A DNA stretch of 64,000 bases, taken from Kiritimatiellia bacterium (GTDB lineage: Bacteria > Verrucomicrobiota > Kiritimatiellia > CAIQIC01 > Lenti-01). Every line of letters begins with the position of its first letter. Positions within the stretch are counted from its first letter, which is position 1. Location: the NCBI GenBank assembly GCA_028681135.1, contig JAQUJC010000007.1, positions 57 to 64,056 on the forward strand, read 5' to 3'. The notes below the pieces were generated by a model that ran no database searches, was not told the DNA's origin, and saw nothing but the letters and a program-made list of their open reading frames with translations. Of the stretch, positions 37,150 through 56,400 are shown piece by piece. The translations under genes and the position numbers were made by a program.

Positions 37150-37175
37150 AAGAACGATACGAGTGGAGGTGACAG

Positions 37176-38179: not shown

Positions 38180-38215
38180 CGGGGCCTTTCGCACAGGCCC
38201 CCCCCCCCATTCTTT

Positions 38216-38278
38216 GGGGTCAGCCCTTAAAATATGAATCTTGAGATTCATATTTTAAGGGCTGACCCCATTTTTCTT
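38216..38278 (+). terminator. Perfect 25-bp inverted repeat (GGGGTCAGCCCTTAAAATATGAATC-ttga-GATTCATATTTTAAGGGCTGACCCC) + T-tract: intrinsic terminator; member of a palindromic element family
   Basis: Seen directly. It is followed by 'atttttctt' and preceded by a C11 tract (38198-38208). It shares the GGGGTCAGCCCTT core and the internal gaatcttga with the palindrome at 53896. Confidence 0.85.
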
Positions 38279-38413
38279 AACACATAACTCATATGAAATT
38301 AACTGTAATATTACCGTATAAGGGTTGCGCCCAAAATGAAATATATTTGATAATGAGCTGTATCAATAGGAGGTCGCGGGAGAGTTCTCAAGCGGCTCAC
38401 AAAGTTTTGTGTC

Positions 38414-41400
38414 ATGAAACATTTACGCTCAAGCCAGTATCGGAATGGCTGTCGGTCGGTGCCAACAGCCTGTGGCCGCGTGCTGAGTCGCGTGCGTCGG
38501 CAGCGCGATGCGGGCGTCGGTCTTGTCGTGTTGGTTCTCTGCGGGCTGGGGGCAGTGGGCGCACAGGCGCAGGTGCAGTCGATCGCGGGAATCACCGTCA
38601 CATATCAGACCGTCGCCAATACTAACCAGAATTATTCAACGCAGGGCGGCGGCAGTTCTAGTTTCCCAGCCGACACAACGTATAACATCCGTTTCAATGA
38701 GGGGTCGTCGAACCATATGTACCTCGCGGAGGTCATGGTTGGCGGGCGCACGTTCGACAGTATCGCGCTGGCGGGACAGATCAACATTGCCCGGTCATCA
38801 AGGGCGGCAATCACGGGGGCGCACCATATCGTGCTCTACGAACAGGCGTCTGTTTCCGGTACAAACCTCTTGTTGAAATCCAGCTATGCGGCGACGATGG
38901 AAGAGTCGTTGCGCAGTGCGATGATCAACCACGGGGCTGACAACGTATTTTCGGATCAGGGCGATGGCAACGGGAACAACAACAACATTCAGCGCATCGA
39001 CTATCTGTTCCCTGACGGCCTGCCGGTGCACAGCCACATTGAGCAGCGCGGGTTCCTAGTGATGGATCGTGGGGGAAACGACCGGTTCAAGATTGCGGCG
39101 GTCACGGCGCTGGACGCCAATGGAAAGCCCGCGGGTTTCGGGCCGGTGGTCAGTGTGCTGGAGACGCAGTGGGGGACCTCCGGCATCACCCTGGACACGA
39201 TCGTGATGCGGGGCTATACCGAGGACGGCGACGTTCAGCATCCGTCGGCCAGCCTGGGGTCTCAGCCGCTCTCAGGCGTTTTTCTGAGTTGGCAGGCATT
39301 GGGGTTGAAGACCAACGATTTGATTTATGGCTATGCGCTGGCGGCCAACGACGCAACCACGAATGGGGCGTATTGGACGCAAACCGATAATCCGGCCTAT
39401 TTCCCTATCAACACGTCGCCGTCTTCGACGTATGGCGGCCTGGACCTGATCAGCGGGGGGTTGATGTTCTATGACGAGGAGCTGAACGTGACGCTAGGCG
39501 ACCGGGCCTGGGAGGACCTTAACGCCAATGGCCTTCAGGACGCAGGGGAGCCGGGGCTTTCCAATGTGCTGGTGCACGTCTATGACAGCGTCAGCAATCT
39601 GGCGGCCGTGGTCCGCACTGATACCAATGGCGTGTGGAGGTCGCCGGGACACGGCCCGGGCGCCTATTTCGCGACCTATGTCTGTCCAGAGGGGTATCAA
39701 TTCACAACGCGTTATGCCGGGACCAACTCGGCGATCGACAGCAATGCTGACCCGCTCACGGGTCAAACGGCGGTATACCCGATGAGCAACGGGCAGACCA
39801 ACCTGACACTGGACGCAGGGTTTTACCGTCTGGCCTCGCTGGGCGATCTCACGTGGGAAGACAGCAATGTCGATGGGCAGCAGGACATCGGCGAGCCGGG
39901 CCTTGGGGGTGTAGTGGTGCGGTTGTACGACGCGATGTCCAACGTGATTGCCACGAGCACCTCGTCGATGGTGGGGGCTTATGCTTTCAATGATGTGCGG
40001 CCGGGGACGTATTCCGTGGGCTTCACGGCCCCCGCGGGGTATCAGTTCACGGCGGCGGATATCGGCAACGACGCCACGGACAGCGATGCGGATCTGGCCA
40101 CCGGCGAGACGGTGCCCATCACGCTGACGAGCGGACAGACGAACCTCTCCGTGGATGCGGGGTTCTACCAGCCGGTATCCCTGGGGGATTTCACGTGGGT
40201 GGACACGAATGGAAACGGACAGCAGGATGCCGGGGAGCCGGGACTGGCGGGTGTGGTGGTGCGGCTGTATGACGCGGCCTCGAACGTGACCGCCACGACG
40301 ACCTCGTCGGTGGCGGGGGCCTACGCTTTTACGGATCTGTTGCCGGGTTCGTATTCCGTGGGTTTTACGGCTCCTGCGGGCTATCAACTTACCACGGCGA
40401 ATGCGGGTAATGATGCCACAGACAGCGATGCCCATCCGGCCACTGGCCGGACCGGAACCTATGCGCTGCTGAGCGGCCAGGCCAACACCACCGTGGACGC
40501 GGGGTTCTGCCGTCCGGCGAGCCTGGGGGATTTCACCTGGCTCGATAACAACTTCAACGGACAGCAGGATGCCGGTGAGCCGGGCCTACCCGGTATGGTC
40601 GTTCGGTTGTACAATGCGGCGTCCAATGTGATGGGCACGACGACGTCGTCGGTGGCGGGGGCCTATGCCTTCTCGAATTTGTTGCCGGGAACATATTTTG
40701 TCGGGTTCACGGTTCCAGTGGGCTATCAACTCACCACGGCGAATGCGGGCAACGACGCTACAGACAGCGATGCTAACCCGGCCACTGGGTGGACCGGGAC
40801 TTATGTGCTCACGAATGGCCAGGCGAACACCACCGTGGATGCGGGGTTCTACAGTTCAGGCAGCACCGGCTTGAGACTCTACAAATCGAGCAGCGTGACC
40901 GGCAACTGGAATCTGGACGACACCAATGCCTATTACATCACGATTCAAAACACCGGGACGGTAGCCCTGACGGGTATCGATCTGAGCGATCTGCTGCCGG
41001 GCGGCGTGAGCTTTGTGGAGGGCAGTGCCCAGATCGTCCAACTGCTGTCGCAGACCACCATGCCGTTCACGGAAACGGTTTCGGACAATTTCGGGACGGT
41101 TTCGTACGGCAACAATGACGGGATTGTCAACTGGTTGGGGAATTGGATCGAAACAGGCGATGATGGGTCCGCCGCGAGCGGCAACGTGCTGGTGCAGTCC
41201 GGGGCGTTGGTGTTCCAGGATCGCAATGCGCGCAACGATACTGTCACCCGCACCCACCGCCGCTCGACAGCTACAAACCGGGTGTATACGAACTCCGTGC
41301 TGAGTTTTTCCTATCGGCGCATCAACTGGGACTGGAATGACAGCATGGAGATATCTGTTTCCACCAACGGGTTTGCTGGCCAGTCCGATTTGGTCTACAC

Positions 41401-44400
41401 GGTTCCGGGCGAGTCAACAACCGATCCCAGTTTCATCCCGATCACCACCAACATCACCGCGTTCATGGGAGCCGACCTGGCGGTGAGAATTGAGGCGGGA
41501 CGGCGATTCAGCAATAACGACCAATGTCATTTCGATTTCATCACGATCACTCAGTCAGGCTACGACACTCAGAATCAGCCGCAACTGGTTTATACCAACG
41601 GAATGACGGTGAACGTGATATCGAACCTGCCTGCGGCGACGCCGACGAACGTGTTGGAAAACTATACGTTGCCGGCGGGTACCAGCGTGACCATCCGTAT
41701 CCAGACCACACTGGATGTGCCATTGGTTTCTACGCAATTCATCAACGTTGCAACCGCGCAGGCACCTACCACACCACCGGCGGTGGCCGCCGTCACGAAT
41801 TATGCCGTGTCGCATTCGGTGGGCGACTGGGTGTGGTTCGATACGGATGGAAACGGGATTCAAGACAGCGGTGAGACCGGCCTGGCGGACGTGTCGGTGC
41901 GCCTCTACAGTGCGGCGTCCAACCTGGTGGCGGAGACGGTCAGCGGCCCCAACGGGGCCTATGGCTTCTCTGGCCTGCCGACCGGGGCATATTTTCTGGA
42001 GTTTGTCACGCCATCCAACTATCTGGCGACCGCGCAGAATCAGGGCAGCAGCGAGGCGCTGGACAGCGATATGGACCCGGCGACTGGTCGTACGGCCGTC
42101 TTTACGCTGAGTGGCGGAACGAACGACACGAGCCGGGATGCCGGCTTCTATCAGCCCAGTTCGAGTCTCGGCGATTTCGTGTGGCGCGATGTGAACGTGG
42201 ATGGCATCCAAAGTGGGGGGAGCGAAACGGGGATGCCGGGCGTGGTGGTGCGGCTGTACGACACCACTTCGAATGTGGTGGCGACCACGGCAACCTCCGC
42301 CGCCGGAATTTATAGTTTCACAAATTTGGCGCCGGGAACCTACTTCCTGGAATTTGTGGCACCGTCTGGCTTCACCTTCACGTTGCGCAATCGGGGGGGC
42401 AATGACGAACTCGATAGCGACGTGGATATCGCCACCGGGCGCACGGCGCTGTTTTATCTGCCGCCGGGCACACATGATCTGAGCTGGGATGCCGGCCTGA
42501 CGGAAGTCATCAGCGGACTGTCCATTGTCAAAGTCTCGGATGCCTCGAGCTGCCTGACGCCCGGCGACACGATCACCTATACCGTGACCGTTGTGAACAC
42601 CGGCAACGTGGCGCAAGCGGGCGTGGCGATCAGCGATGTGCTGCCGCCGGGACTGACCTATGTGACGAACTCGGCGCAGGTGATCAGTACCAATACGGTT
42701 GTAAATACGGTGTTAGATGAATTCAACGACGTGGCCTATGACAATCAAGATGGCACCCGGAACTGGTCCGTGGATTGGCAGGAGAGCGATCCCTATGGCA
42801 CCGTCGGCCCAGTCGGCGACTATGTCGGCATCGTCGGCGAGCGCCTACAGTTCTATTGGGCCTATGTTGGAAGCGAGGCGGCGTGGCGCTGGGCGGACCT
42901 GAGCGCTGAGACCAATGCCACGTTGTCTTTCGACTGGGAGACGGTCGGGCTGGATGCCAACGAGTATTTGAGCGTCCAAATTGCCACGAATTCCAGCGGC
43001 CCATTTGTGCAACTGGTCCAACTGGGCGGCACGGCCAGCGGCAGCACTAATTTTAACATCACGGCCTACATCTCCACCACCACCACGATTCGGGTCGAGC
43101 CCACGCCGGGCAGTTCCGATTGGGAGCGGAACGAGTATGGTTATCTGGACAACATCGAGTTTTCGAGCATCTGCTCGACCATCACAACCAACCCGGCCGC
43201 AGCCCCCCCGCTGATGGTGTTCGACCAGACGCTGGCCCCCGAGGGCTCGTTGACGGTGAGCTTCCAGGCGACGGTGGATGTGCCCTCCACAGTGACGCAA
43301 TTGGTCAACACCGCCACGATCTATAGTGCGGTGCAGCCGCCGCTGGAGGCCGTCATCACCAATTGCGTGGAGGTGGCCGATGTGGGCGTCCACAAGGTCG
43401 TCAGCGACAGCACCCCGGACATGCTGTCCGACATTGCGTATACCCTGGTGGCGTCGAACAACGGACCGGCCACGGCGACGGGGGTGGTCATCACCGATGT
43501 GCTACCGCCGCAGATGCAATACAGCAGCCACTCCAACGGCGCCTACAGCGCGGCCACAGGGGAGTGGACCATCGGCACGCTGGCCGTGGGCGCTTCCACG
43601 ACGCTGGTGGTGAGCGCGACCGTCAACGAGGGCACCGCGGGGCACAGCATCACCAATGTCGCCAGCGTGACCGGCCGCGATCTCTTCGATCCGGTTCCTG
43701 CCAACGACGTCAGTGCGGTTGTGATCCTTCCCAATCCCGGGATCACTATCGGCAGTCGAATCTGGTTCGACGCCAATGGGGATGGCATTCAGGATGCCAA
43801 CGAAACCAACGGCGTGGCCAATATCCCCGTCGCTCTGGTGGATACGAACGGTAATATGCGGGCCACAACCCACACGGATGCTCAGGGCACCTATCTGTTC
43901 GAAGGCATGTTGCCCGGGACGTATACGGTACAGTTTGATCTGTCCGCGCTCACCACCAACGAAATACTCAGTCCATCCAAGCAAGGCGATGATCCGACGC
44001 GGGATAGCGATGCGTTGGCGGGCAACACGTGCGATCTCGCCTGGACCGAGCCACTACTCTTCAACGTGGACAGAGCAGGGGACCATCTGCATGTCGATTT
44101 GGGCATTGCCACGCGCGGCACGACGCGCGCGGAAGTGGTGGAAGTGTGGGGCGAGTGGAGCGGGGACGAAGGTCGGGTGGTGTGGCGGACGGATTCCGAA
44201 TTCGGCACCGCGGGATTCTTTGTCTATCGGGTCGATCCGCAGACGGGCGCTGAGACGCGCTTGAGTCCGCTCCTGTTGCCGTCGGCCTTCCGGGAGTCCG
44301 GTGCCACCTATTGGCAGGCGGACCCGGCGGCGCGCCGGGGTGAAGCCGGAACCTATCGGCTGGAGGAAAAGGAACTCTCGGGAGACTTCCGCGACCTGGG

Positions 44401-47400
44401 GGTGCATGATGTCCGCTTCGCCGTTGCGAAGAAGGCGACACCGCGATCGCCGATGCGTCTGCCGACGGCCCCAGCGCGAACACGGCAGCCGCGGGCGGTG
44501 CCGCGCGGGGGCGCAACCACGACATCAGCCGTGCAGAAAGTGTTGGTTTGTGAGGAGGGAGTCTATGGCGTGAGTTTGCAATCCCTCGCGGAGGGGATGG
44601 GGCTTCCGCTGGAAGCCGTGCAAGCCCTGGCGGCCACCAACGGCCTTGTGATTAAAACACAAGGGGCGCCCGTACCCGCGATTTATGATGCCGCGCGTGA
44701 GCAAATAGTGTTCTACGGCGAAGCGCCGCCACCCAACTGGTACGTGCATGACGCGGCCTATTTGATTTCGGCGGGCGAGGGCCGGGCCATGGCGCGGCGC
44801 GAGCCGGGGGCAACCGGCGGCACCCCCCTCTTGCCGGTGCGGCTCCACTTCGAAGAGGACGTGTTCCTTTTCAACATGAACCAGATGCCGGACGATTTCT
44901 ATTTCTGGATTCCGGTGATGAGTGGCTTTGGACCACTTTCCATCAATCCCATCCCGCTGGATTTAAGCGGCTATGCGGGCGGTGATGTGACCTTGAAGGT
45001 GCGGCTGATGGGCTGGTCGAGTTCGCCGAATAATCCAGACCATTTGGCGGTGTTTGGTTTCAATGGGACCGAGGTGGGGTCGATCACCTTCGATGGCCAG
45101 GAGGCCGTGGAAGTGGACCTGACGATTCCGGCGTCTGCCGTCATCAGTGGCGAGAATACCCTGACCGTGGAAGGTGTGTTGCAGCCCGGATATACCGAGA
45201 GCTTTTTTGTCGTGGATTGGGTCGAGGCGGCATTTAATCGCCAGGTGGCGCCTCGGGCCGAGGCCGCCTTCTTCCGCGCGGGCGGCGTGAGCGCGGTTTC
45301 CGCCGCGGCGTTTACAAACCCGTTGGTGCTATCGCTGGATGATAACGGATGGGCCACCTGGATTGCGGATGAGAACGGGACATTGGACACTAAGGCATGG
45401 GCCGCACAAGCGGATGACGAGCGTTTTGCCGTGATCGAAGCGGATGCCGTGCCGCTGTTGGCGCCGGAGCCGGCGGCGGCCGATGCCTGGTTTTTGGCTC
45501 CGACGAACCGGATCGACTATCTGGTGATCGCGTCCCGGGCGCTGGCCCCAGCGGCACAGGAGTTAGCGGAGTACCGCGCTGGCCAGGAGTTGCGCACCGG
45601 TGTGGCCGTGTTCGAGGAGGTCTGCGATCTGATGACCGGCGGCGAGCGCACCCCGGAAGCCATTCCGGAATTGTTGGCCTATGCACAGGCGACGTGGGCG
45701 CGTCCCCCGCACATGGTGGTCCTGGTGGGTAATGGACACTATGATTATCGTGGCATTAACTATGCGGAAGTGAACCATCTGCCGCCGATGATGATTCAGA
45801 CCCATGCCGGGGTTTGCGCGGTGGATGGACTGCTGGCGGATGCCGGCGGCGATGAGTTGCCCGATGTGGCCATCGGCCGTCTGCCCGCGCGCAACGCCAG
45901 CGACTTGTCCGCCATGATCGCCAAAATCAAGGCCTACGAGACCGGGTTTGGTGCCGCGTGGCAGAACGAGTTGGTGCTGGTGGCGGATACGGCGGATGCC
46001 GCGGGTCAATTCCCGGATGCCAATACCCAGATCGAGCAGTTGGTGGCCGCTCCGTACCGCGTGGCCGAGCGGATCGAACTGGATGAGACCGATGTTGAAA
46101 CGGCCCGCGTACAGTTGCTGAATCAGTTCCAGTCCGGCGCGGGCTTTATCCACTATACGGGCCATGGCGGATTGCACAATTACAGCAGCCAGAATTTGCT
46201 CAAGGGGTCGGACGTGGCCGCGATGACCAATGCCTTGCGTTCGCCCGTAACGGTGGCGCTGAGCTGCGTGGTGGGGCGTTTTGAAGTCCCTGGGGCCACC
46301 AGTTTGGGCGAGGTCCTGATGCAACACGCTTCAGGCGGCGCGGTGGCAGTACTGGGACCCTCGGGGTTGTCACAACATACGCCGGCGACAGAATTGGGGG
46401 AGGCGTTTTATCAGGCCATCCTCCAAGAGGGCGAAGGTCGACTCGGATTGGCGTTCCTTCAGGCGCGCCGGTCGTTGTCGGAAACGGTATTCTGCCGGGA
46501 CACGTTGTCTTTGTATAATTTGCTTGGCGACCCGGCCTTGCGAATCGCGGGCAACCCCATTGCTGACATGCCGTTGGACCTGGCCCGGGTCCGGTTGCAG
46601 GATGTGGACCAAGTCTATGACGGTACCCCCCGCTGTGTCACGGCGCAGACGGACCCGGCCGGTCTCGCAGTCGAGTTCACGTATGATGGAGCGCCTACGC
46701 CGCCGACCGCGGTCGGGCGCTATGCCGTGGTTGCCACAGTGGTGGATGCCACCTACGAAGGCAGTGCCAGCGGCACGCTGACGGTAGAAAAGGGAACCGC
46801 AGACCTGACGTTAGACGACTTGACGCAAACCTATGACGGCACGCCGCGCGTGGTGTCGGCCACGACGATTCCGGCCGGGCTCGCACTCGAGGTGACCTAT
46901 GATGGACAGGCCATGCCGCCGACGGTGGCGGGGAACTATGCCGTGGTTGCCGCGGTGGCAGATGCCAATTACGAAGGCCGTGCCTCGGGCCTGTTGACCG
47001 TGGAGAAGGCAGCGGCGACTATCGTGCTCGGGGAGATGACACAGACCTATGATGGCACACCGCGCATGGTGTCGGCCTCGACAATGCCAGCGGGCTTGCC
47101 GGTGGCCTTGTCCTATAACGGCGAGCCGGTTGCCCCGACCGCCGCCGGCATCTATGTGGTGGAGGCTGTCGTGAACACCGCCAATAGGGAAGGCGGGCAG
47201 ACCGGATTGCTGACCGTGGCCAAAGCGCCGGTCGCGGTGGCGCTGGCAAATCTGGAGCAGGCCTATGACGGCGAAACCAAACAGGTCACCGCTCTGGCAA
47301 ACGCGCCTGACGTGGCGATTGCCGTCACCTACAACGGCGGCGAGTTGTTGCCCTCGCGGATTGGCTCGTATGAGGTCGTGGCCCACGTGGACGACCCGAA

Positions 47401-47806
47401 CTTTACCGGGACTGCGGCCGGGACGCTTTCGATCCTGCCGACCAGGGACCCGTTCAAGGTCTGGCTGGAATCCAAAGGTCTGAATCCGCAGGAGCAATAC
47501 GATGCCGGGAATGAGGATATCGACGGCGATGGGCTCACCACCTATCAAGAGTATATTGCCGATACCCACCCCGACGACTTGACCAGTGTGTTCGAACTGT
47601 TGAGCGACTATAATGCCAAAGCAGGGGAATTGAGCCTGATCTTCTTTGGCAGTTCCAACCGCATCTACGAATTACTGGTGAGTACCAATTTGTTCCAAAC
47701 GACCGAGGTCATCGATCTTGGCCGCGGGCAGGGACCGATGGTCGTGACAACCAATGTCCCGGGGAGTTGGGTCGGAACCGTTCGTGTTCGGATGCCGTCA
47801 CCTTAG
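38414..47806 (+). CDS. Giant (3130-aa) secreted multi-repeat surface protein: SdrD-B/Cna-B-like repeats, DUF11-like domains, gingipain-like C25 cysteine-peptidase domain, 5 YDG/MBG repeats, C-terminal Ca-binding (dockerin/TSP3-like) motif
   Basis: Signal-like hydrophobic stretch 'VGLVVLVLCGLGAVGAQAQ'. At least 8 SdrD-B-like units ('GD.(T)W.D.N.NG.QD.GEPG...VV(R)LYD...'). DUF11-like repeats (three 'TGNVA...LPPGL'-type units). C25-like region 'DYLVIASRALA...HMVVLVGNGHYD...YTGHGG...LSCVVGRF'. Five 'YDGTPR.V.A....AGL.V..TYDG...PT.AG.Y.VVA.V.D.NYEG...G.L.VEK' repeats. 'DIDGDGLTTYQEY' near the C-terminus. The start codon is uncertain (first ATG at 38414; the signal region begins ~30 aa later). Confidence 0.85.
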   Translation: MKHLRSSQYRNGCRSVPTACGRVLSRVRRQRDAGVGLVVLVLCGLGAVGAQAQVQSIAGITVTYQTVANTNQNYSTQGGGSSSFPADTTYNIRFNEGSSNHMYLAEVMVGGRTFDSIALAGQINIARSSRAAITGAHHIVLYEQASVSGTNLLLKSSYAATMEESLRSAMINHGADNVFSDQGDGNGNNNNIQRIDYLFPDGLPVHSHIEQRGFLVMDRGGNDRFKIAAVTALDANGKPAGFGPVVSVLETQWGTSGITLDTIVMRGYTEDGDVQHPSASLGSQPLSGVFLSWQALGLKTNDLIYGYALAANDATTNGAYWTQTDNPAYFPINTSPSSTYGGLDLISGGLMFYDEELNVTLGDRAWEDLNANGLQDAGEPGLSNVLVHVYDSVSNLAAVVRTDTNGVWRSPGHGPGAYFATYVCPEGYQFTTRYAGTNSAIDSNADPLTGQTAVYPMSNGQTNLTLDAGFYRLASLGDLTWEDSNVDGQQDIGEPGLGGVVVRLYDAMSNVIATSTSSMVGAYAFNDVRPGTYSVGFTAPAGYQFTAADIGNDATDSDADLATGETVPITLTSGQTNLSVDAGFYQPVSLGDFTWVDTNGNGQQDAGEPGLAGVVVRLYDAASNVTATTTSSVAGAYAFTDLLPGSYSVGFTAPAGYQLTTANAGNDATDSDAHPATGRTGTYALLSGQANTTVDAGFCRPASLGDFTWLDNNFNGQQDAGEPGLPGMVVRLYNAASNVMGTTTSSVAGAYAFSNLLPGTYFVGFTVPVGYQLTTANAGNDATDSDANPATGWTGTYVLTNGQANTTVDAGFYSSGSTGLRLYKSSSVTGNWNLDDTNAYYITIQNTGTVALTGIDLSDLLPGGVSFVEGSAQIVQLLSQTTMPFTETVSDNFGTVSYGNNDGIVNWLGNWIETGDDGSAASGNVLVQSGALVFQDRNARNDTVTRTHRRSTATNRVYTNSVLSFSYRRINWDWNDSMEISVSTNGFAGQSDLVYTVPGESTTDPSFIPITTNITAFMGADLAVRIEAGRRFSNNDQCHFDFITITQSGYDTQNQPQLVYTNGMTVNVISNLPAATPTNVLENYTLPAGTSVTIRIQTTLDVPLVSTQFINVATAQAPTTPPAVAAVTNYAVSHSVGDWVWFDTDGNGIQDSGETGLADVSVRLYSAASNLVAETVSGPNGAYGFSGLPTGAYFLEFVTPSNYLATAQNQGSSEALDSDMDPATGRTAVFTLSGGTNDTSRDAGFYQPSSSLGDFVWRDVNVDGIQSGGSETGMPGVVVRLYDTTSNVVATTATSAAGIYSFTNLAPGTYFLEFVAPSGFTFTLRNRGGNDELDSDVDIATGRTALFYLPPGTHDLSWDAGLTEVISGLSIVKVSDASSCLTPGDTITYTVTVVNTGNVAQAGVAISDVLPPGLTYVTNSAQVISTNTVVNTVLDEFNDVAYDNQDGTRNWSVDWQESDPYGTVGPVGDYVGIVGERLQFYWAYVGSEAAWRWADLSAETNATLSFDWETVGLDANEYLSVQIATNSSGPFVQLVQLGGTASGSTNFNITAYISTTTTIRVEPTPGSSDWERNEYGYLDNIEFSSICSTITTNPAAAPPLMVFDQTLAPEGSLTVSFQATVDVPSTVTQLVNTATIYSAVQPPLEAVITNCVEVADVGVHKVVSDSTPDMLSDIAYTLVASNNGPATATGVVITDVLPPQMQYSSHSNGAYSAATGEWTIGTLAVGASTTLVVSATVNEGTAGHSITNVASVTGRDLFDPVPANDVSAVVILPNPGITIGSRIWFDANGDGIQDANETNGVANIPVALVDTNGNMRATTHTDAQGTYLFEGMLPGTYTVQFDLSALTTNEILSPSKQGDDPTRDSDALAGNTCDLAWTEPLLFNVDRAGDHLHVDLGIATRGTTRAEVVEVWGEWSGDEGRVVWRTDSEFGTAGFFVYRVDPQTGAETRLSPLLLPSAFRESGATYWQADPAARRGEAGTYRLEEKELSGDFRDLGVHDVRFAVAKKATPRSPMRLPTAPARTRQPRAVPRGGATTTSAVQKVLVCEEGVYGVSLQSLAEGMGLPLEAVQALAATNGLVIKTQGAPVPAIYDAAREQIVFYGEAPPPNWYVHDAAYLISAGEGRAMARREPGATGGTPLLPVRLHFEEDVFLFNMNQMPDDFYFWIPVMSGFGPLSINPIPLDLSGYAGGDVTLKVRLMGWSSSPNNPDHLAVFGFNGTEVGSITFDGQEAVEVDLTIPASAVISGENTLTVEGVLQPGYTESFFVVDWVEAAFNRQVAPRAEAAFFRAGGVSAVSAAAFTNPLVLSLDDNGWATWIADENGTLDTKAWAAQADDERFAVIEADAVPLLAPEPAAADAWFLAPTNRIDYLVIASRALAPAAQELAEYRAGQELRTGVAVFEEVCDLMTGGERTPEAIPELLAYAQATWARPPHMVVLVGNGHYDYRGINYAEVNHLPPMMIQTHAGVCAVDGLLADAGGDELPDVAIGRLPARNASDLSAMIAKIKAYETGFGAAWQNELVLVADTADAAGQFPDANTQIEQLVAAPYRVAERIELDETDVETARVQLLNQFQSGAGFIHYTGHGGLHNYSSQNLLKGSDVAAMTNALRSPVTVALSCVVGRFEVPGATSLGEVLMQHASGGAVAVLGPSGLSQHTPATELGEAFYQAILQEGEGRLGLAFLQARRSLSETVFCRDTLSLYNLLGDPALRIAGNPIADMPLDLARVRLQDVDQVYDGTPRCVTAQTDPAGLAVEFTYDGAPTPPTAVGRYAVVATVVDATYEGSASGTLTVEKGTADLTLDDLTQTYDGTPRVVSATTIPAGLALEVTYDGQAMPPTVAGNYAVVAAVADANYEGRASGLLTVEKAAATIVLGEMTQTYDGTPRMVSASTMPAGLPVALSYNGEPVAPTAAGIYVVEAVVNTANREGGQTGLLTVAKAPVAVALANLEQAYDGETKQVTALANAPDVAIAVTYNGGELLPSRIGSYEVVAHVDDPNFTGTAAGTLSILPTRDPFKVWLESKGLNPQEQYDAGNEDIDGDGLTTYQEYIADTHPDDLTSVFELLSDYNAKAGELSLIFFGSSNRIYELLVSTNLFQTTEVIDLGRGQGPMVVTTNVPGSWVGTVRVRMPSP
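39490..40860 (+). repeat. Four tandem ~342-bp coding repeats (SdrD-B-like units, ~75-85% identical) inside the giant gene
   Basis: Translated units begin LGDRAWEDLNANG / LGDLTWEDSNVDG / LGDFTWVDTNGNG / LGDFTWLDNNFNG and end DAGFY(R/Q)(L/P)(A/V)S. This is a nucleotide-level tandem duplication. Confidence 0.8.
46580..47410 (+). repeat. Five tandem ~180-bp coding repeats (YDG/MBG-like Ig-fold units) inside the giant gene
   Basis: Repeated 'QTYDGTPR(V/M)VSA(T/S)T(I/M)PAGL...TYDG...PPT.AG.YAVVA.V.DANYEG.ASG.LTVEK' units. Confidence 0.75.
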
Positions 47807-47872
47807 CAGAGGGGGCTTGATGTGCAGGCGCAGCCGTGATAAACAAGTTCCCACCACAAAGGAGCGTTCCGC

Positions 47873-48277
47873 ATGTCTGAAAAACCGCGCTTGCCATATG
47901 AAAAACCTGTCAGTATTGACCTGGGCCGTGTGGCCCCGATTTTGGGTGATACGTGCAGCGTCGGCAATGGTGCGGCCGATTGTCCGGCGGGCATGAACAA
48001 CGCGATGGTGGCGATTTGTCAACCTTCCGGAGCCAGCGCCGATAATGACTGTCGCACCGGGTCCAATGCCGGCACATTCTGTTGGCCCTCGGGCTCGGGG
48101 GCTGCTGTCTATTGTTTGATGGGGAGTGGCTTTAAAACGGAGTCGTCGTATGGCGATGGAAACGCAGCGCCGTCGTCGTTTGGCGGCACCTTGGACTCCC
48201 TGGGTGAAACGGAGCCCCCCCCCAGCCTGGGAGGCACACCGGGCGGTGAAGGGATCAGTGGGCCGGGGGCCTTTTAG
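47873..48277 (+). CDS. Small Cys/Gly/Ser-rich protein (134 aa) with strong SD; candidate modified-peptide precursor or secreted Cys-rich peptide
   Basis: 'aaaggagcg' sits 8 nt upstream of the ATG. There is no obvious signal peptide. The N-terminal ~28 aa 'MSEKPRLPYEKPVSIDLGRVAPILGDT' is leader-like. The core has 6 Cys (CSVG..DCPAG..AICQP..DCRTG..FCWPSG..YCLMG) embedded in G/S/A/N-rich sequence. A C9 tract at 48215-48223 encodes PPP. Confidence 0.5.
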   Translation: MSEKPRLPYEKPVSIDLGRVAPILGDTCSVGNGAADCPAGMNNAMVAICQPSGASADNDCRTGSNAGTFCWPSGSGAAVYCLMGSGFKTESSYGDGNAAPSSFGGTLDSLGETEPPPSLGGTPGGEGISGPGAF

Positions 48278-48358
48278 GGCGATGTTCTGGAGTGCGGTCG
48301 GCGGTGCCGAGGGGCCTCTTAGCGTAACCAACTGTGACCGGATCGTCCAAAGAGACCC

Positions 48359-49009
48359 TTGTGGAGCGTGAGGGAAGCAAATGGGGCATTGCAACCGGAG
48401 ATGTTTGTGCAAATCATGGACCGGCAAATCCACTATAGCGGGTTGACGGCCCCAGCTCAGGGCGTCAGCATGCGCGGCACGCTGGCACCCGGCGATTGCC
48501 TGCGGGTGCGAGCGCTCCCGCTGGGCGAACTGCAGGCTGGGGATGTGGTCGCCTTCCGCCGTGGGGGACGCGTCTGGGCGCACCGGGTGGTGGCGCTTCA
48601 AGATGGGCACGGGTGGACCCAGGGTGATGGCAACTGGCGGCGGGATGCTGAACCGCTGGCCCCAGAAGAATTCATCGGGCGCGTCGAGGAAGCCGACGGG
48701 CCGTTGGGCCGACGGCCTGTGGTCGGTGGTGCCCGAGGATTGCGCCGAGCGCGTGCGCGACACGTGGTCGCCTTTGTCCGCTGGGGTGTGCTGTCTGTGG
48801 CAGCGCCGTTTTATCGTGTGCTACGGGCCAGCCGGATCGTATCGTGTCTGTGGCGGCCGGAGGTCCAGGTGGCGCAGTTTGCCGCGACGGGCGGCATCCA
48901 GACCAAATTCATCCATCGGGGGCAGACGATCGCCTGCTGGCAACGCCAGACGCGAGTGTGGACCTGCCAAGCGCCCTATGACTTGATCTTGTTCCCGCCC
49001 ACATCATGA
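48359..49009 (+). CDS. S24/S26-family (signal-peptidase/LexA-fold) serine peptidase-like protein
   Basis: 'GVSMRGTLAPGDCLRVRALPLGELQAGDVVAFRRGGRVWAHRVVAL' matches the S26 pattern (SMxPTL ... GD.v.f ... xRvv). The position equivalent to the catalytic Lys (KRV) is His-Arg (AHRVV), suggesting a Ser/His-type (SipW/Sec11-like) variant. The assignment is tentative. Confidence 0.45.
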   Translation: MWSVREANGALQPEMFVQIMDRQIHYSGLTAPAQGVSMRGTLAPGDCLRVRALPLGELQAGDVVAFRRGGRVWAHRVVALQDGHGWTQGDGNWRRDAEPLAPEEFIGRVEEADGPLGRRPVVGGARGLRRARARHVVAFVRWGVLSVAAPFYRVLRASRIVSCLWRPEVQVAQFAATGGIQTKFIHRGQTIACWQRQTRVWTCQAPYDLILFPPTS

Positions 49010-50202
49010 TCCCATCGGTTGCAGCGCTGCCCCGTTCGCCGGAAATGGCGTTGCTGCTGTGCTGCATCAGTCCGCTACCGACACCAGCAGAGGTGGCGGC
49101 CGTGGATTGGCCGCGATTCCAGGCCGTGGTCACCCACCATCATCTGCTGCCTTTGGTCTATCGCTGTTTGAAATCGGCCGCGGACAACGGCGCCGCCGTG
49201 CCGCCCGAATGGCTGGCGTTCTTTAAGCAACAAGCCTATGACATCGCGGCATTCAATTTACGAGCTACGGGGATATTGCGCCGTCTGCAACGTCTCGCCC
49301 GGGAAAGGGGGGTGGCGCTCATCCCGGTCAAGGGGCCTGCCTTGGCTATGTGGGCCTATGCCAGCACCTCGCTGCGGCAATTCGAGGATTTGGACCTCGT
49401 GGTTCGCCCGGCAGAGCTGCTGGTGGCGGTTGAGCTGCTGGAGCAGGAGGGCTATCAGTTGCGCGAGCTGTCGCCCAGAACCGATCGGCAACGCTACCTG
49501 CGCTCGCGTCAGGACTGGTCCTTGCAACGCCCCGCAGAGGCACCCCATCTGGACCTCAAGCCGGTCTTGATTTCCCATACGTTGTGTGGACCGGAATCCG
49601 CCGATTACCTCCTTGAAACGTCCCGGCGAATCGACACCGGTGATGATGGCGATCTGGAGTCACCGGGACCGGAGGCCATGTTGCTGGCGGTGTGCGTGGA
49701 TGGCGCCAACGAAAGCTGGCCCAAACTGTCGGCGGTGGCGGATGTGGCCGCTCTGCTGGCAAACCACTCCAACGCCGACTGGACCGGACTGGTGGCCGAG
49801 GCCAAGCGCTTGGGACAATGGCGCAGCTTGCTCGTCGGCGTGGCCTTGGCGGATATCCTGTTGAGTGGTCCCATGCCATCGGTTTTTGCGGAGGCGATCG
49901 ACCGTGATGCGACGGCTCAGCGGCTGGCGTTGGCGGCGGCCCGCCTCCTGGCCGCAGGCCGGTTGCCGCGGGATGAGGGCGTGCAGGCCGCGCGCTTTGC
50001 CTGGAAAACTCGCGATGACTGGCGCGGTCGCCTGCGCTTGTTGCGGCGTTTGCTGTTTATTCCCGGGGCTGCGGATTTGGATTGGGTGGCTCTGCCATCG
50101 GCGTTGTATCCACTGTATGCCGGGCTGCGGCCCTGTCGCCTGGCCTGGGACGCGGTGCGGCGCCGCCCCCGCCGTATCTGTTCCGGTGCAGGGGGCGCCT
50201 GA
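49006..50202 (+). CDS. Nucleotidyltransferase-family protein (NTP_transf_5-like, of the kind seen in peptide-modification clusters)
   Basis: 'MALLLCCISPLP...VDWPRFQAVVTHHHLLPLVYRCL...RERGVALIPVKGPALAMWAYASTSLRQFEDLDLVV' matches the uncharacterised-nucleotidyltransferase N-terminal pattern, including the D-x-D of a pol-beta-type NTase. Confidence 0.5.
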   Translation: MIPSVAALPRSPEMALLLCCISPLPTPAEVAAVDWPRFQAVVTHHHLLPLVYRCLKSAADNGAAVPPEWLAFFKQQAYDIAAFNLRATGILRRLQRLARERGVALIPVKGPALAMWAYASTSLRQFEDLDLVVRPAELLVAVELLEQEGYQLRELSPRTDRQRYLRSRQDWSLQRPAEAPHLDLKPVLISHTLCGPESADYLLETSRRIDTGDDGDLESPGPEAMLLAVCVDGANESWPKLSAVADVAALLANHSNADWTGLVAEAKRLGQWRSLLVGVALADILLSGPMPSVFAEAIDRDATAQRLALAAARLLAAGRLPRDEGVQAARFAWKTRDDWRGRLRLLRRLLFIPGAADLDWVALPSALYPLYAGLRPCRLAWDAVRRRPRRICSGAGGA

Positions 50203-50204
50203 TC

Positions 50205-52004
50205 ATGAATACCCCGCGAACCCGCTTGAAGCATATCCGCCAATCTGTCCGGCTGGTCTGGACCAGTGCACCGGGCTGGACTGTTTTGCAGGGGCTGTTG
50301 GTGCTCGTTCAGGGGGTGTTGCCTGTGGCGACGTTGTTCCTGACCCGGCAGGTGGTGGATGCGGCGAGCGCATTTTTGGGTCAAGCGCCCGGCGCGCGCG
50401 AGCCGTGGTCCCTGCTGGCCCTGGCCCCGTGGGTCGCGGCCGTGGCGGTCGCCGGTTGGCTATGCCGAGCCTTTTCATCCTTGGTGGTGGCGGCCCAGGT
50501 CGAGGTGGTGGCCGATACCGTGCAGGATGCCTTGCAGGCCAAGTCGGTGGATGTGGATTTGGCCTACTACGAGACGTCGTCCTATCATGACCAGATGCGC
50601 TTGGCGCAGGCGGAAGCGACGGGCCGTGCCACCAGCATCGTGCGCAACTTGGTGCAACTGGGCAGCGGCAGTATCATGCTGGTGTCTGTGGCCAGCGTCT
50701 TGGCGGGGACCCAGGGGCTGCTGCTGCCGCTGCTGCTGCTGGCGGCGGTGCCGGGGGCGCTGGCCCGCCTATACAATGCCCGGCGCTGGAATCGCTGGCG
50801 TATGCAGCAGAACACAACCAGCCGCTACGCCGGCTATCTACATGTGCTGTTGACCAGTCTGCCCTTTGCCAAGGAAATTCGCCTGTTTGGATTGGCCGAC
50901 GAATTGCGCGGGCAATCGCGCCGCCTGCGCGACCGGTTGCGGCATAGTCGCTTGATCTTGTTGCGCCGTCGCGCCGCTGCCGAAATTGCTGCGGATGCGG
51001 TCTCGGCGGGGGTGCTGGTGGCGGGCCTGGGTCTGGTCTATGCGCGTTTGCAGACGGGCGGTGCCACGTTGGGCGATTTGGCTTTGCTCTATGGCGGATT
51101 TCAAAAGGGACGGGGGGCCTTTGCGGGGGTCCTGGGCGGACTGGCCTCGCTCTATGAAGACTCGTTGTTCATTGCCCACTTTTATCGCTTTATGGAGTTA
51201 CCCCGACGAATCCAGTCGCCGAGCACCCCCCGGCCCGTTCCGCAATCCTTGAAACACGGCATCCACTTCGAGCATGTCTCCTTTCGCTATCCGGGGACGG
51301 ACCGCGATGTGTTGCGCGAGATCAACCTGGAGATTCGTCCGGGCGAGCATGTGGCGCTGGTGGGCGAGAATGGTTCGGGCAAAACCACCCTGGTGAAGCT
51401 TCTCTGCCGGCTCTACGATCCGACCGCAGGCCGGATTCTGCTGGAGGGAATCGATCTGCGCGAGTTCGCCCCTGACGAGCTGCGCGCGGCCTACAGCGGG
51501 GTGTTTCAGGACTTTGCCCGCTACCAAATGAGCGCAGAGGAAAATATCCGGCTGGGTCACGTGACGGTGCCGCCGGGTGATGCCCGCGTGGTAGCAGCGG
51601 CGAAACGGGCGGGCGCGGACGAGATCATTTCCCGCCTGCCCACAGGCTATGAAACCCGACTCGGACGGCTGTTTTTTGGGGGGGTGGAACTCAGCGAGGG
51701 CCAATGGCAGCGGGTGGCGCTTGCGCGCGCGCTGCTGCGGTCAGCGCCGATCCTGCTGCTGGATGAACCCACCAGCGCTCTCGATGCCCGGGCCGAACGG
51801 CAGTTGCTCGATACCATACTGACAGAAGCACGCGACCAAATTTTGCTGATGGTCAGCCATCGATTTTCTACCGTCCAGGCCGCCGACCGCATCGTGATGC
51901 TCACGGAGGGGCAGGTGACAGAAACCGGGGTGCATGAGCAATTGATCCAAGCCAATGGGGGGTATGCGCAACTGTTTACTAAGTGTTCACGCGGACCCGG
52001 CTGA
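50205..52004 (+). CDS. ABC exporter, fused transmembrane + ATP-binding domains (peptide/lipid exporter type)
   Basis: 599 aa with 6 N-terminal TM helices. Walker A 'GENGSGKTT', signature 'LSEGQWQRVALARAL', Walker B 'ILLLDEPTSALD'. The ATG at 50205 overlaps the upstream stop. Confidence 0.85.
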   Translation: MNTPRTRLKHIRQSVRLVWTSAPGWTVLQGLLVLVQGVLPVATLFLTRQVVDAASAFLGQAPGAREPWSLLALAPWVAAVAVAGWLCRAFSSLVVAAQVEVVADTVQDALQAKSVDVDLAYYETSSYHDQMRLAQAEATGRATSIVRNLVQLGSGSIMLVSVASVLAGTQGLLLPLLLLAAVPGALARLYNARRWNRWRMQQNTTSRYAGYLHVLLTSLPFAKEIRLFGLADELRGQSRRLRDRLRHSRLILLRRRAAAEIAADAVSAGVLVAGLGLVYARLQTGGATLGDLALLYGGFQKGRGAFAGVLGGLASLYEDSLFIAHFYRFMELPRRIQSPSTPRPVPQSLKHGIHFEHVSFRYPGTDRDVLREINLEIRPGEHVALVGENGSGKTTLVKLLCRLYDPTAGRILLEGIDLREFAPDELRAAYSGVFQDFARYQMSAEENIRLGHVTVPPGDARVVAAAKRAGADEIISRLPTGYETRLGRLFFGGVELSEGQWQRVALARALLRSAPILLLDEPTSALDARAERQLLDTILTEARDQILLMVSHRFSTVQAADRIVMLTEGQVTETGVHEQLIQANGGYAQLFTKCSRGPG

Positions 52005-52071: not shown

Positions 52072-53340
52072 GTGAGGAGGTGTCTCCATTTTTTTGCTGC
52101 GCTAGCGGGATTTTATTTCTCGCTGCTGTTGCGTTTTACTGTCGCCGGTCCCGGCGATGGCATTGTCGTGGGGTCCTGGGTGCTCAGTCCCTATGTGGAG
52201 TTGAATACCACCTATGATTCCAATGTTTACAAGGACTACCAAGACGAGATCGCCGACTGGTTTTTTGAGCCGGAGCTGGGCTTGCGCTTCAGTTCTGCCG
52301 CGGAAACCAACCGCATTTCTATCCGAGGGAATGTGTACTATTCTGATCGGCAGTATCAGCAGGAGAAAAATCGGGCGTTCAACACTTATGGCGACCACAT
52401 CACGCTGCGCCATGGCAATGGCCAGCGGGCCTTGATCGAACTGATCCAAAGCTTCCGTCATTTGGACGACAATGACCGCCATGCAGCCGACATTGAGGGT
52501 TCCATGCTCTCTGCCGAAATGGTTGAAGACAGCAACACGCTGGATTTAGAGCGCGACGTTCATCAGTTGGGCGCAGAGGTGTCCCGGCGGATGAGTGACA
52601 AGCTCAACCTGGCGCTGGCCTATCGTTATGCGGGGGTTCAGTATGAGAACGAGACCCATGATCGCCTGGACCCCAAGCAGTTGGGCGTACCGCAGGGGCT
52701 GAATTTGGATGGGCATATTCTTGAGCTGAATGGCGCCTTGGGACTCACCGACAAAACGGATGCCTTTGTGACCTTGCGGTATGGCCAGCAATATCAGGAA
52801 GACACTCCGGGGGCTGCCAAGTTGTCGACCATCCGAGTGGGGTTGAACTCGCACGGGACCGACAAACTAATGTATACGGCGGCAATCGGGATCGAGCGCT
52901 ATCAGCGTCCCATCGAGTCTGAAGCGGATGCGGACATCTATTTCAGTTTTAATGCGTCAGCCGACTGGTTCATCACCGAAAAACTGACCTTCCGTTGCGG
53001 GGGCTTTAACGGCACCCAGTTTTCGTCATTCTATCTGGGCAATGGGATGGAGTACATCAGTGGCTGGGCCGGCATGGGCTACCGCTGGAAACCGAGCATC
53101 ACCTTTTCCGTTCGCGGGGTCTATCGCCGGGATGACTATCTGGACCCGGTGACGCATCTGGGCGAGACCAAGGATCGGATGGATGACCGTGTCGAGGGGC
53201 ATGCGCGCGTGGATTATGTGGCCCCCGGCGGCTTTCTGCGTCTTTATCTGGAGGGCACCTATGACGAGGTTGATTCCAATTTCGATTTTGTGGATTATGT
53301 GGACCAGCGGATCATGCTGGGCGCAATTATCCGCTACTAG
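52072..53340 (+). CDS. Putative outer-membrane beta-barrel protein (EPS/PEP-CTERM-locus-associated type)
   Basis: Signal-like N-terminus, alternating hydrophilic/aromatic beta-strand pattern, C-terminal '...LGAIIRY' ending in an aromatic residue as in OMPs. The assignment is tentative. Confidence 0.45.
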   Translation: MRRCLHFFAALAGFYFSLLLRFTVAGPGDGIVVGSWVLSPYVELNTTYDSNVYKDYQDEIADWFFEPELGLRFSSAAETNRISIRGNVYYSDRQYQQEKNRAFNTYGDHITLRHGNGQRALIELIQSFRHLDDNDRHAADIEGSMLSAEMVEDSNTLDLERDVHQLGAEVSRRMSDKLNLALAYRYAGVQYENETHDRLDPKQLGVPQGLNLDGHILELNGALGLTDKTDAFVTLRYGQQYQEDTPGAAKLSTIRVGLNSHGTDKLMYTAAIGIERYQRPIESEADADIYFSFNASADWFITEKLTFRCGGFNGTQFSSFYLGNGMEYISGWAGMGYRWKPSITFSVRGVYRRDDYLDPVTHLGETKDRMDDRVEGHARVDYVAPGGFLRLYLEGTYDEVDSNFDFVDYVDQRIMLGAIIRY

Positions 53341-53348: not shown

Positions 53349-53888
53349 ATGATGAAAAAAAATAAAATCGGCGCTCTGGTGGTCGCCAGCGTACTCGTGG
53401 CCACATTCGCTTGCGGCGCTTTTCAAAAACCGTCCGCTGAACAGCTAAAGGCTACGGCCAAAGACCCGGCCCTTTTGGCGGGGCTCTTGGTGGATGCTTC
53501 GATCGATCAGGCGGCCGAAACAACCAAGGATGTCGTGGCGGAAATCGTCAAACTGGACCTCGAACCCGACGAGCGCGATCTGCGAACAATATGGCTGGTG
53601 CGTATCCTGTTTCAGGCCATGTCGGAGGATGTCTGGACCGATGTGGCCATCTCGTTGGGCAAATTTGTGGCGGCCAGCCCCAAGGCCAGTGTCACGCCGT
53701 CACTGGTGTCGGCCATTCAAAGGTCCATTATTCAAACCGCCGAGTTGAAAAACGGGAACGCGTTCGGCAATGCCTTTATCATGGCCATGCAGACGGTGGC
53801 CGGTGCCCCGGGGGGAGGCAAAAATGTGCCGCCCCAACCGCCGCCCCCACCCGTCGCCTTGCCCTACGAAGCCCAGCGCTTCCGCTAA
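53349..53888 (+). CDS. Small secreted/lipoprotein of unknown function (Pro-rich C-terminus)
   Basis: 'MMKKNKIGALVVASVLVATFACG' is a signal peptide with a lipobox-like FAC. It is 179 aa and has no recognisable domain. Confidence 0.4.
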   Translation: MMKKNKIGALVVASVLVATFACGAFQKPSAEQLKATAKDPALLAGLLVDASIDQAAETTKDVVAEIVKLDLEPDERDLRTIWLVRILFQAMSEDVWTDVAISLGKFVAASPKASVTPSLVSAIQRSIIQTAELKNGNAFGNAFIMAMQTVAGAPGGGKNVPPQPPPPPVALPYEAQRFR

Positions 53889-55698: not shown

Positions 55699-56400
55699 TC
55701 AGCGGGGGATAAAGTGCATCGTGATGGGCGTGCCGTAGGGCGGCACCTGGCGAGGATTGGCATGGAGGGCCTCGTCATTAGCGCCCGCGGGATGGTTGAT
55801 GTTGATCAAGGCGTAGGGGTCCCAATAGGTGGCCACAAGCGATTCTTCAGCGAATCCCATGAAGCGCCCTTCTTTGACCATAGAGCCATTGAATATCCAC
55901 GGGGCATTGGGCAAAACGGCGTCCTCCTTGATCTGCCAGATAAATGTTTCGGCTCGTTCGCGCCGGAGGTCGCCATCCGCGTCCCATTCCACAAAAATAT
56001 CCACGGGGGATCCTGTCGGGGGCCCCTTGCCTAGATCGGGCATGGGCTCGCCCCCTTTGAGCCCGGCCAGCAGCAGCGCCGCTTGCAAATCAATGGGATT
56101 CACCGACAAGACAAAGACGCACTCATGCACCTTGCCTTTGGGGCCGCAGGCCAGCAGTTCGATGGCGCCATGCGTCTGGTTGACCCACCCGGTGGCAGTG
56201 ACCGTTTTGGTGGCAGAATGAACCCGGACCTCGCCCAGATGGGCGATGGGGCCATCCCAGCACACAGGGGAGGGGGGGGGCTGGGGCTCGGAGCCGGCCG
56301 GATAAATGACAATCGGCTCCTCGTGCTCTGCCGCGGGAGCGGTTGTGGCAAGCGTGAGGGTCAGTCCAAGGGCGAAAAAACAGATTGTGCGTCGTGACAT
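55699..56400 (-). CDS. Secreted hypothetical protein
   Basis: Signal peptide 'MSRRTICFFALGLTLTLATTAPAA'. 233 aa with no recognised family. A plus-strand G9 tract at 56272-56280 encodes PPP. Confidence 0.4.
   Translation of the reverse strand: MSRRTICFFALGLTLTLATTAPAAEHEEPIVIYPAGSEPQPPPSPVCWDGPIAHLGEVRVHSATKTVTATGWVNQTHGAIELLACGPKGKVHECVFVLSVNPIDLQAALLLAGLKGGEPMPDLGKGPPTGSPVDIFVEWDADGDLRRERAETFIWQIKEDAVLPNAPWIFNGSMVKEGRFMGFAEESLVATYWDPYALININHPAGANDEALHANPRQVPPYGTPITMHFIPR

Follow-up and report, generated by a model that had tools for sequence, protein, structure and literature searches.

Four described systems come close to the one treated here. The closest catalogued is the SynChlorMet cassette (TIGR04248-TIGR04252, comprising ScmD, ScmC, ScmE, ScmF and the putative precursor ScmA), which was defined computationally and in which the P-loop protein ScmC and a protein of the PqqD family accompany two radical S-adenosylmethionine (SAM)/SPASM enzymes. 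In sactipeptides and ranthipeptides (subtilosin, ruminococcin C, freyrasin/PapB, SCIFF), as here, a leader precedes a Cys-rich core, the radical-SAM/SPASM maturase carries a PqqD-type recognition domain, and the cluster provides its own peptidase and ATP-binding cassette (ABC) exporter (PMC6760926, PMC10114670). The nearest well-studied functional analogue is the QhpC/D/E/F maturation, in which QhpC carries a leader of about 28 residues, is crosslinked through leader-dependent thioether formation by the radical-SAM/SPASM enzyme QhpD in the cytoplasm, is trimmed by a dedicated serine protease and then leaves by ABC export (PMC7876137). Finally, in the lasso-peptide clusters of paeninodin and pseudomycoidin an HPr-kinase homologue phosphorylates the peptide and a co-encoded "uncharacterised nucleotidyltransferase" adds hexoses to the phosphate (PMC8498205, PMC6993621). 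Here we analysed 64,000 nucleotides of a Kiritimatiellia contig (JAQUJC010000007.1, hereafter the window), where a small Cys-repeat gene is followed by genes for an S26-like peptidase, an NTP_transf_5 protein and an ABC exporter. We consider it probable that this block (47873-52004) is one half of a pathway for a ribosomally synthesised and post-translationally modified peptide (RiPP), the half for substrate, processing and export, that the maturase half lies at 33894-38179, and that the product serves a surface function together with polysaccharide.

An earlier reading of the window, made from the sequence only, had singled out an open reading frame (ORF) of 134 codons with AAAGGAG 8 nt before its ATG, six Cys residues and no signal peptide, and each of these features was confirmed. 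The Cys residues lie at positions 28, 37, 49, 60, 70 and 81, GISGPGAF forms the C terminus, and with a top Kyte-Doolittle 19-mer score of 0.89 the protein has no hydrophobic signal segment. Its homologues fell into 107 clusters in an initial search and 215 in a profile search; an exhaustive profile search of 1.8 billion representatives gave 70 precursor clusters at 50% identity, nearly all of 60-118 aa. When close relatives are aligned, residues 1-87 are near-invariant, the six Cys included, and the last 47 residues vary freely. The Cys pattern recurs in homologues, which the earlier reading had set as a test: each Cys is conserved in at least 90% of them, C49, C60 and C81 without exception and C28, C37 and C70 almost so. 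Between codons 1-87 and those of seven close homologues there are 42-55 third-position differences and 5-13 second-position differences. The stretch 47873-48277 is a real gene under strong purifying selection.

The N terminus, which had already been taken for a leader, is near-invariant in the whole family, and we now propose residues 1-25 as its extent. Across phyla this leader of about 25 residues follows the pattern K-Y-E-K-P-x-S-[IL]-D-x-G-x-V-A-P-[IV]-L-G; Y-x-[KR]-P is found in 184 of 189 family members, and in 171 of these the first Cys comes 19 residues after the Tyr. While the leader stays constant, the core varies widely in sequence and in module number, with 2-9 Cys per member (mode 6) spaced 8-11 residues apart in the wide family, where the Gly of the C-x2-G-x2-A-x3 module is present in 65% and the Ala in 56%. 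A constant leader followed by a core that is variable in sequence and module number is what classically marks a ribosomal precursor peptide, and the 134-residue protein shows the general features of RiPP substrates, namely a conserved leader, a variable core and no signal peptide. AlphaFold predicted no stable fold for it (pLDDT 48.5), which fits what is expected of a peptide substrate. Compared with Pfam and NCBIfam, the precursor gave nothing at E <= 10 except insignificant ScmA and lectin scores: the window protein did not match TIGR04252 ScmA (49 positions, cut-off 35 bits) at E <= 10, and the best ScmA scores in the family, 11.1 and 6.8 bits, fell on two relatives. No second precursor gene was found in the window, as the spacers beside the Scm genes contain no candidate and a six-frame motif scan returned only the copy at 47873; a promoter scan gave nothing above shuffles. 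Very probably, the product of the Cys-rich small gene is the ribosomally made precursor on which a maturation system with two radical-SAM enzymes acts.

The gene composition of the SynChlorMet cassette is found at 33894-38179, where two radical-SAM/SPASM genes, a PqqD gene and a ScmC-type gene are adjacent. Unlike the catalogued members, the four window enzymes all score under the curated cut-offs. ScmE reaches 379.7 bits with TIGR04250 (just short of 400) and ScmF 331.4 bits with TIGR04251 (cut-off 400), these being by far the best family matches of both proteins, while ScmD (54.5 bits, TIGR04248, cut-off 100) and ScmC (32.7 bits, TIGR04249, cut-off 125) fall far short; PF27840 (ScmC) is recorded on the ScmC orthologues of four compared loci (L010-L013). 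A motif scan found the catalytic motifs intact in ScmE, ScmF, ScmC and NTP_transf_5. The RiPP combination of a modifying enzyme with a nearby PqqD-type recognition element is also present, with PqqD domains in both ScmE and ScmD. None of the NCBIfam models named for the SynChlorMet cassette matched the peptidase, NTP_transf_5 or the ABC exporter.

In the window the two halves are separated by a gene for a giant surface protein, and we asked how they are arranged elsewhere. A genome scan with the ScmC protein alone returned two loci only; a metagenome scan, seeded with alignment A4 (A3 was too variable as a seed), contributed 38 further loci. Of 39 distinct precursors, 33 come with 1 kb or more of upstream sequence; ScmC lies directly upstream of 13, a giant C25-domain gene upstream of another 13, and the flanks of the remaining 7 are too short to tell. 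In the 13 loci with ScmC upstream, all from other lineages, the precursor follows straight after ScmE-ScmD-ScmF-ScmC without an intervening giant gene and lies 400-980 nt past the ScmC start (L009-L013, L032, L034, L036, L045, L047-L050). Their hosts include a Victivallales metagenome-assembled genome (MAG; L009), a Deltaproteobacteria MAG (L010) and candidate division CSSED10 (L011), besides contigs L012 and L013. The S26-like gene comes directly after the precursor in four of the five loci L009-L013; in the exception, L011, it lies 2.3 kb from the precursor, on the opposite strand and beside the ABC gene. Over all 26 informative distinct loci, the peptidase gene is within 2.6 kb of the precursor in 25, and NTP_transf_5 and ABC exporter genes also lie in the compared clusters. 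Moreover, an Opitutia MAG carries Scm genes, giant genes and the precursor block on a single contig (L005 and L008) in the order of the window. The components are thus physically linked across phyla. The sequence-only reading had proposed both that the small gene co-occurs with the radical-SAM/PqqD genes and that precursor, maturase, protease and exporter form one system split around the giant gene: the former is borne out by the 13 adjacent arrangements, and the latter by these unsplit loci together with the same split on the Opitutia contig.

Because the precursor directly follows ScmC without a giant gene in 13 loci, the giant adhesin is, on this comparison of gene order, a lineage-specific insertion into a single cluster. 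The slot upstream of the precursor is filled by the giant gene in 13 distinct loci (L001, L003-L007, L014-L018, L024, L029) and empty in the 13 others. The spacer 38180-38413, with a GC content of 0.427 against about 0.60 in its flanks, resembles both a strong terminator and a scar left by that insertion. The precursor tail differs between the two groups: in all 18 loci that have the giant C25 gene it runs on for 32-60 residues past the last Cys, and in all 19 precursors (18 loci) that stand directly after ScmC for 6-23; a core of the Kiritimatiellae type occurs in the short-tail group too, in L032. The long tails beside the giant gene are acidic and Pro-rich, and their coincidence with it is perfect. 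From this coincidence, the tail and the giant protein may function together; since the giant-gene loci form one clade, the correlation could equally reflect a single ancestral event. The C-terminal peptide had also been put forward as the target of the kinase and the nucleotidyltransferase. That choice calls for revision: residues 88-134, GISGPGAF included, are the variable part of the protein, these 47 residues are absent from relatives without the giant gene, and a tail that is not conserved is a poor first guess for such a target.

Several loci showed particularities of their own. L011 (CSSED10) has a second precursor paralogue (MRNKKQYEKPVCVDLGRVAPVLGNVC...) at 13111-13386 and two extra stand-alone PqqD genes (5664-5948 and 13408-13704); its ABC gene, like its S26-like gene, is on the opposite strand. 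In L007 a precursor homologue at 9980-10417 lacks the start and the first Cys (...VATILGDTLQRRHIGAADC...) and the giant gene is split into several ORFs (1-9819), so that this locus is either a decaying copy or affected by assembly errors. Some short type-B precursors (L010, L013, L034, L047) end in a basic aromatic motif (FFGRRR, NRFG, RGFFQRR, RFFSR), which may be a second recognition or processing signal. The 23S rRNA intervening-sequence (IVS) family gene that sits between ScmF and ScmC in the window, overlapping the ScmC start, is not a constant member of the cluster, as members of this family are placed elsewhere in L012 (11697-12065, 13510-13740) and in L049.

The gene that follows the precursor encodes a protein that NCBI lists, at 100% identity, as "S26 family signal peptidase", and a signal-peptidase fold with His in place of the usual Lys had been suspected from the outset. 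Its family profile matches human SEC11C (E = 2e-6) and SEC11A (E = 4e-6) with the SM, HR and GD...D motifs aligned, while the score with the archaeal-type signal peptidase model TIGR02228 (33.5 bits) did not reach the cut-off of 51.85. His54, Asp69 and Asp75 are invariant in 26 homologues, the His standing where LexA and bacterial signal peptidases have Lys, and the Ser of G-x-S-M-x-G is encoded in nine of the nine peptidase loci checked. Judged by the SEC11 profile match and the invariant His/Asp/Asp, the protein is a Ser/His/Asp enzyme of the endoplasmic reticulum (ER)/archaeal type. It has the clan SF fold and the motifs of the S26B group (SEC11, SipW, archaeal signal peptidase I), from which, besides that score, it differs in three respects: no membrane anchor was found in it (the top hydropathy is 1.37 and an N-terminal hydrophobic segment is absent), its C-terminal part has about 95 extra residues forming a long basic helix and a small beta domain, and its presumed substrate has no signal peptide. 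No helix-turn-helix (HTH) or other DNA-binding domain was found in it either. By its place beside the precursor, this S26-like protein would be the leader peptidase. Signal peptidases follow a -3/-1 rule, which the I/V-x-G at precursor residues 23-25 fits, and our guess is that the leader ends at the near-invariant Gly25.

Many homologues of this peptidase are annotated from a Met just after the catalytic Ser (L001, L002, L004, L007, L010 and many 179-aa entries such as P0113, P0118 and P0123). Since the open upstream frame encodes G-x-S in nine of nine loci, the 179-aa starts are mis-called and delete the nucleophile. In practice, database entries that begin one codon past the catalytic Ser would make the peptidase appear inactive.

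The next gene, previously assigned to a nucleotidyltransferase family, belongs to NTP_transf_5 (PF14907, E = 2.8e-42) and keeps the G...D-x-D nucleotidyltransferase motif; no solved structural relative was found for it. As for the ABC exporter, its end at 52004 was confirmed. Its start is most likely not TTG 50082 but ATG 50205, which lies two bases past the stop codon of NTP_transf_5; counted from this ATG the protein has 599 aa, and its homologues have 591-604. In comparison with solved structures it is a generic ABCB-type half-transporter whose best bacterial matches are Sav1866 and MsbA. By score it falls far short of the MsbA equivalogs (256 against 602 bits for TIGR02203, 203 against 867 for NF008381), and it does not fit the peptidase-containing ABC transporters, because the C39 peptidase domain is absent and Pfam gives ABC_tran and related ATPase families only. 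A specific role of the exporter in the peptide pathway is suggested by synteny only. The conserved block reaches past 52004 through an outer-membrane barrel and a lipoprotein, which are syntenic in L001-L007, L016, L026 and L029, BBP2_2 being present in L010 also. The coordinates of all these features are collected in Table 1.

Table 1. Features of the two cluster halves and of the region between and after them (window coordinates).
Feature	Position	Strand	Basis or remark
ScmE-like maturase: N-terminal PqqD, radical-SAM core C125-x3-C-x2-C, SPASM	33894-35315	+	Pfam; TIGR04250
ScmD-like winged helix + PqqD, stand-alone leader-recognition element	35297-35917	+	Pfam PqqD 9.4e-16, MarR_2; TIGR04248
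ScmF-like second radical-SAM/SPASM enzyme, C39-x3-C-x2-C	35917-37080	+	Pfam; TIGR04251
Four-helix-bundle protein, 23S rRNA IVS family	37176-37511	+	PF05635 7.8e-22
ScmC-like P-loop protein, HPr kinase-related, Walker A GHSTAGKS	37508-38179	+	TIGR04249 E = 4.7e-8; Hpr_kinase_C E = 1.7e-3
Perfect 20-bp hairpin followed by a T-rich run, terminator-like, before the giant gene	38219-38266	+	
Giant surface protein, 3130 aa: 7 SdrD_B, DUF11, Peptidase_C25, 4 MBG_3	38414-47806	+	Domain search
Shine-Dalgarno AAAGGAG	47859-47865	+	8 nt ahead of ATG 47873
Cys-repeat precursor gene	47873-48277	+	ORF, 134 aa
Precursor leader, residues 1-25 (PYEKPVSIDLGRVAPILG)	47873-47947	+	Alignments of the family
Precursor core, residues 26-87: six C-x2-G-x2-A-x3 modules	47948-48133	+	
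Variable acidic Gly/Ser/Pro tail of the precursor, residues 88-134, and stop codon	48134-48277	+	Net charge -5
S26B-type (Ser/His/Asp) peptidase, candidate leader peptidase	48359-49009	+	216 codons; NCBI start 48368
Peptidase catalytic codon, Ser	48467-48469	+	
Peptidase catalytic codon, His	48581-48583	+	
Peptidase catalytic codons, Asp	48626-48628 and 48644-48646	+	
NTP_transf_5 nucleotidyltransferase-fold enzyme, KGP...FEDLDL motif intact	49006-50202	+	PF14907 E = 2.8e-42
Half-size ABC exporter, membrane domain + ATPase, 599 aa	50205-52004	+	Pfam; homologue lengths
BBP2_2 outer-membrane beta-barrel with signal peptide	52072-53340	+	PF10082 4e-10
Lipoprotein of unknown family, signal peptide with Cys lipobox ...ATFAC	53349-53888	+	

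From this gene set and from the analogues we infer a pathway with the following steps and order. The 134-residue product would be synthesised without a signal peptide and its leader, about residues 1-25, bound by the PqqD-type domains of ScmE and ScmD. ScmE and ScmF would then modify the six-module Cys core, the likeliest chemistry being one Cys-to-carbon thioether ring per module, and ScmC and NTP_transf_5 may attach a phosphate-linked group, by analogy with the lasso kinase/nucleotidyltransferase pair. The anchorless S26B-type peptidase would cut the leader on the cytoplasmic side, likely after the I/V-x-G, the ABC half-transporter would export the product, and the BBP2_2 barrel and the lipoprotein would work at the outer membrane. 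The product would most likely act at the cell surface, with the polysaccharide of the surrounding Wzx/Wzy locus, and not as a diffusible antibiotic.

Such a pathway would depart from each of the described ones. With respect to sactipeptides and ranthipeptides, the window maturases lie outside the AlbA, StsB and PapB families, the precursors are longer (75-140 aa, with 4-9 regular modules of 10-11 residues), and kinase-like and nucleotidyltransferase genes are added, in a polysaccharide-locus setting. The Qhp protease is subtilisin-like and not of the S26 family, and here the partner dehydrogenase subunit is absent and the core is variable instead of fixed. The lasso kinase/nucleotidyltransferase pair, which is likewise encoded with a PqqD-type protein and an ABC exporter, gives ScmC and NTP_transf_5 their best precedent; its target is a C-terminal Ser, whereas the precursor C terminus is not conserved here. 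A lasso-peptide reading itself was rejected, the Asn-synthetase-like cyclase and the transglutaminase-like B protease being absent among the genes at 33.9-53.9 kb. Literature searches on radical SAM with PqqD, HPr kinase and nucleotidyltransferase and on ranthipeptides with HPr kinase returned nothing relevant, and PF14907 turned up in a single paper on an unrelated matter.

Several points weigh against the proposed pathway. The basis for thioether rings is the Cys-rich core alone, and neither ScmE nor ScmF is close to a characterised thioether synthase: with the models of these families (AlbA, StsB, PapB, QhpD) ScmE stays well under cut-offs of 340-850 bits, at 109 (StsB), 74 (PapB) and 59 bits (AlbA). 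S26-family enzymes usually act outside the membrane, and a cytoplasmic leader peptidase of this family would be unusual. PsmN, the lasso nucleotidyltransferase, may not belong to PF14907; the sequence of the exporter does not separate it from lipid or drug exporters; and the association with polysaccharide genes could be mere neighbourhood. Also, the literature on the SynChlorMet cassette, searched by Scm genes and family accessions, held nothing relevant.

If the polysaccharide genes are mere neighbours, the same biosynthetic logic could yield a diffusible antimicrobial or signalling sactipeptide or ranthipeptide, an alternative that we regard as unlikely. A precursor with radical-SAM, ABC and peptidase genes is the logic of sactipeptide bacteriocins (PMC6760926), and the hypervariable core of the wide family and the two precursor paralogues of L011 would suit such a product. 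The setting argues otherwise. In the window, 237-53888 is one co-directional array of about 53 kb, all on the + strand and running from Wzy/Wzz through the lipoprotein; its part at 237-33897 holds two Wzy-like genes, Wzz/kinase, Wzx, several GT4s, methyltransferases, FemAB-like acyltransferases, a deacetylase, Bac_transf, DegT and CapD. Stop and start codons overlap as ATGA between the CapD-like gene and ScmE at 33894, as they do between the peptidase and NTP_transf_5 at 49006, so that the cluster is translationally coupled to CapD. Polysaccharide genes flank the Scm/precursor cluster in L008 and L010-L013 as well, and indeed in every locus and lineage with visible flanks; by the gene content of these loci, the system recurs in polysaccharide gene clusters of several bacterial phyla. 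Moreover, within the Kiritimatiellae-type clade the precursor core is 74-86% identical, against 42-52% for the S26-like protein, 51-58% for NTP_transf_5 and 58-70% for the ABC exporter, and a core more conserved than its enzymes is unlike arms-race bacteriocins. No immunity gene is evident. The polysaccharide setting, together with a core that is conserved above its enzymes, favours a role at the cell surface over an antibiotic role.

It is improbable that the small protein is instead a crosslinked enzyme subunit or a cofactor precursor of the kind of QhpC, PqqA or mycofactocin. The parallel with QhpC/D/E/F is close (PMC7876137), and ScmE weakly matches quinohemoprotein maturase, mycofactocin and PQQ enzymes; cofactor precursors, however, have an invariant core, whereas module number and core sequence vary widely here, and partner dehydrogenase or redox genes are present in none of the compared loci. 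Slightly more improbable still is that the small protein is no radical-SAM substrate at all, being an exported disulfide-rich or metal-binding protein beside S26-like, NTP_transf_5 and ABC proteins that serve polysaccharide or lipid export. The exporter is indeed MsbA-like at the family level, NTP_transf_5 has no assigned substrate and the cluster lies within a polysaccharide locus, but the precursor has neither a signal peptide nor a predicted fold, its leader is invariant across phyla, PqqD recognition domains are present, and the slot after ScmC is fixed in 13 distinct loci with the S26-like gene next. That the S26-like protein is a self-cleaving regulator of the LexA/UmuD type or a housekeeping signal peptidase, as the LexA C-domains among its best structural matches and its NCBI name might suggest, is very improbable given the missing DNA-binding domain and membrane anchor, the invariant His in place of Lys, the best sequence match to SEC11 and the strict synteny with the precursor; both possibilities had been named from the outset as ones that would refute the original view.

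The preferred reading, a RiPP-type pathway with a surface-acting product, can be carried further to a bolder version, which we hold to be doubtful as a whole. The peptides would form a multi-phylum class of radical-SAM-crosslinked Cys-repeat products, integral to Wzx/Wzy loci, phospho-glycosylated by ScmC and NTP_transf_5 and exported to serve the exopolysaccharide as its covalent primer, its anchor or its matrix partner; where the giant C25-domain adhesin was co-inserted, in Kiritimatiellae and Opitutia, the long acidic tail would couple the peptide to it. If true, this would be a peptide-glycan conjugate made by RiPP machinery, and the S26B peptidase a new kind of leader peptidase. The polysaccharide locus holds two FemAB-like/Acetyltransf_6 genes (17821-18834 and 24424-25524), from a family that includes enzymes adding amino acids to glycans; they may be relevant if peptide and glycan are joined.

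What distinguishes this system is a precursor family that had no annotation, a candidate leader peptidase of an unusual kind and the consistent polysaccharide-locus setting. A catalogued radical-SAM cassette that nobody has studied by experiment gains a concrete substrate family, unmatched in Pfam and NCBIfam; an NTP_transf_5 enzyme, an ABC exporter and a signal-peptidase homologue of the Ser/His type that lacks an anchor join it as conserved partners. Should the S26B-type enzyme be the leader peptidase, a RiPP leader would be removed by an unusual type of protease, and the signal-peptidase fold would take on an unusual cytoplasmic role. A surface role, if true, would link RiPP chemistry to capsule or biofilm biology in little-studied phyla, Kiritimatiellota, Verrucomicrobiota and Lentisphaerota among them.

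Within the polysaccharide locus, the ORFs at 14872-15855, 20580-21722, 22610-24472 and 26783-28573 have no Pfam match at E <= 1e-5, and neither does the ORF at 55699-56400 at E <= 1e-3; these five encode 233-620 aa. After the array, housekeeping genes (RF3, CdaA and a sugar ABC importer) follow on the - strand.

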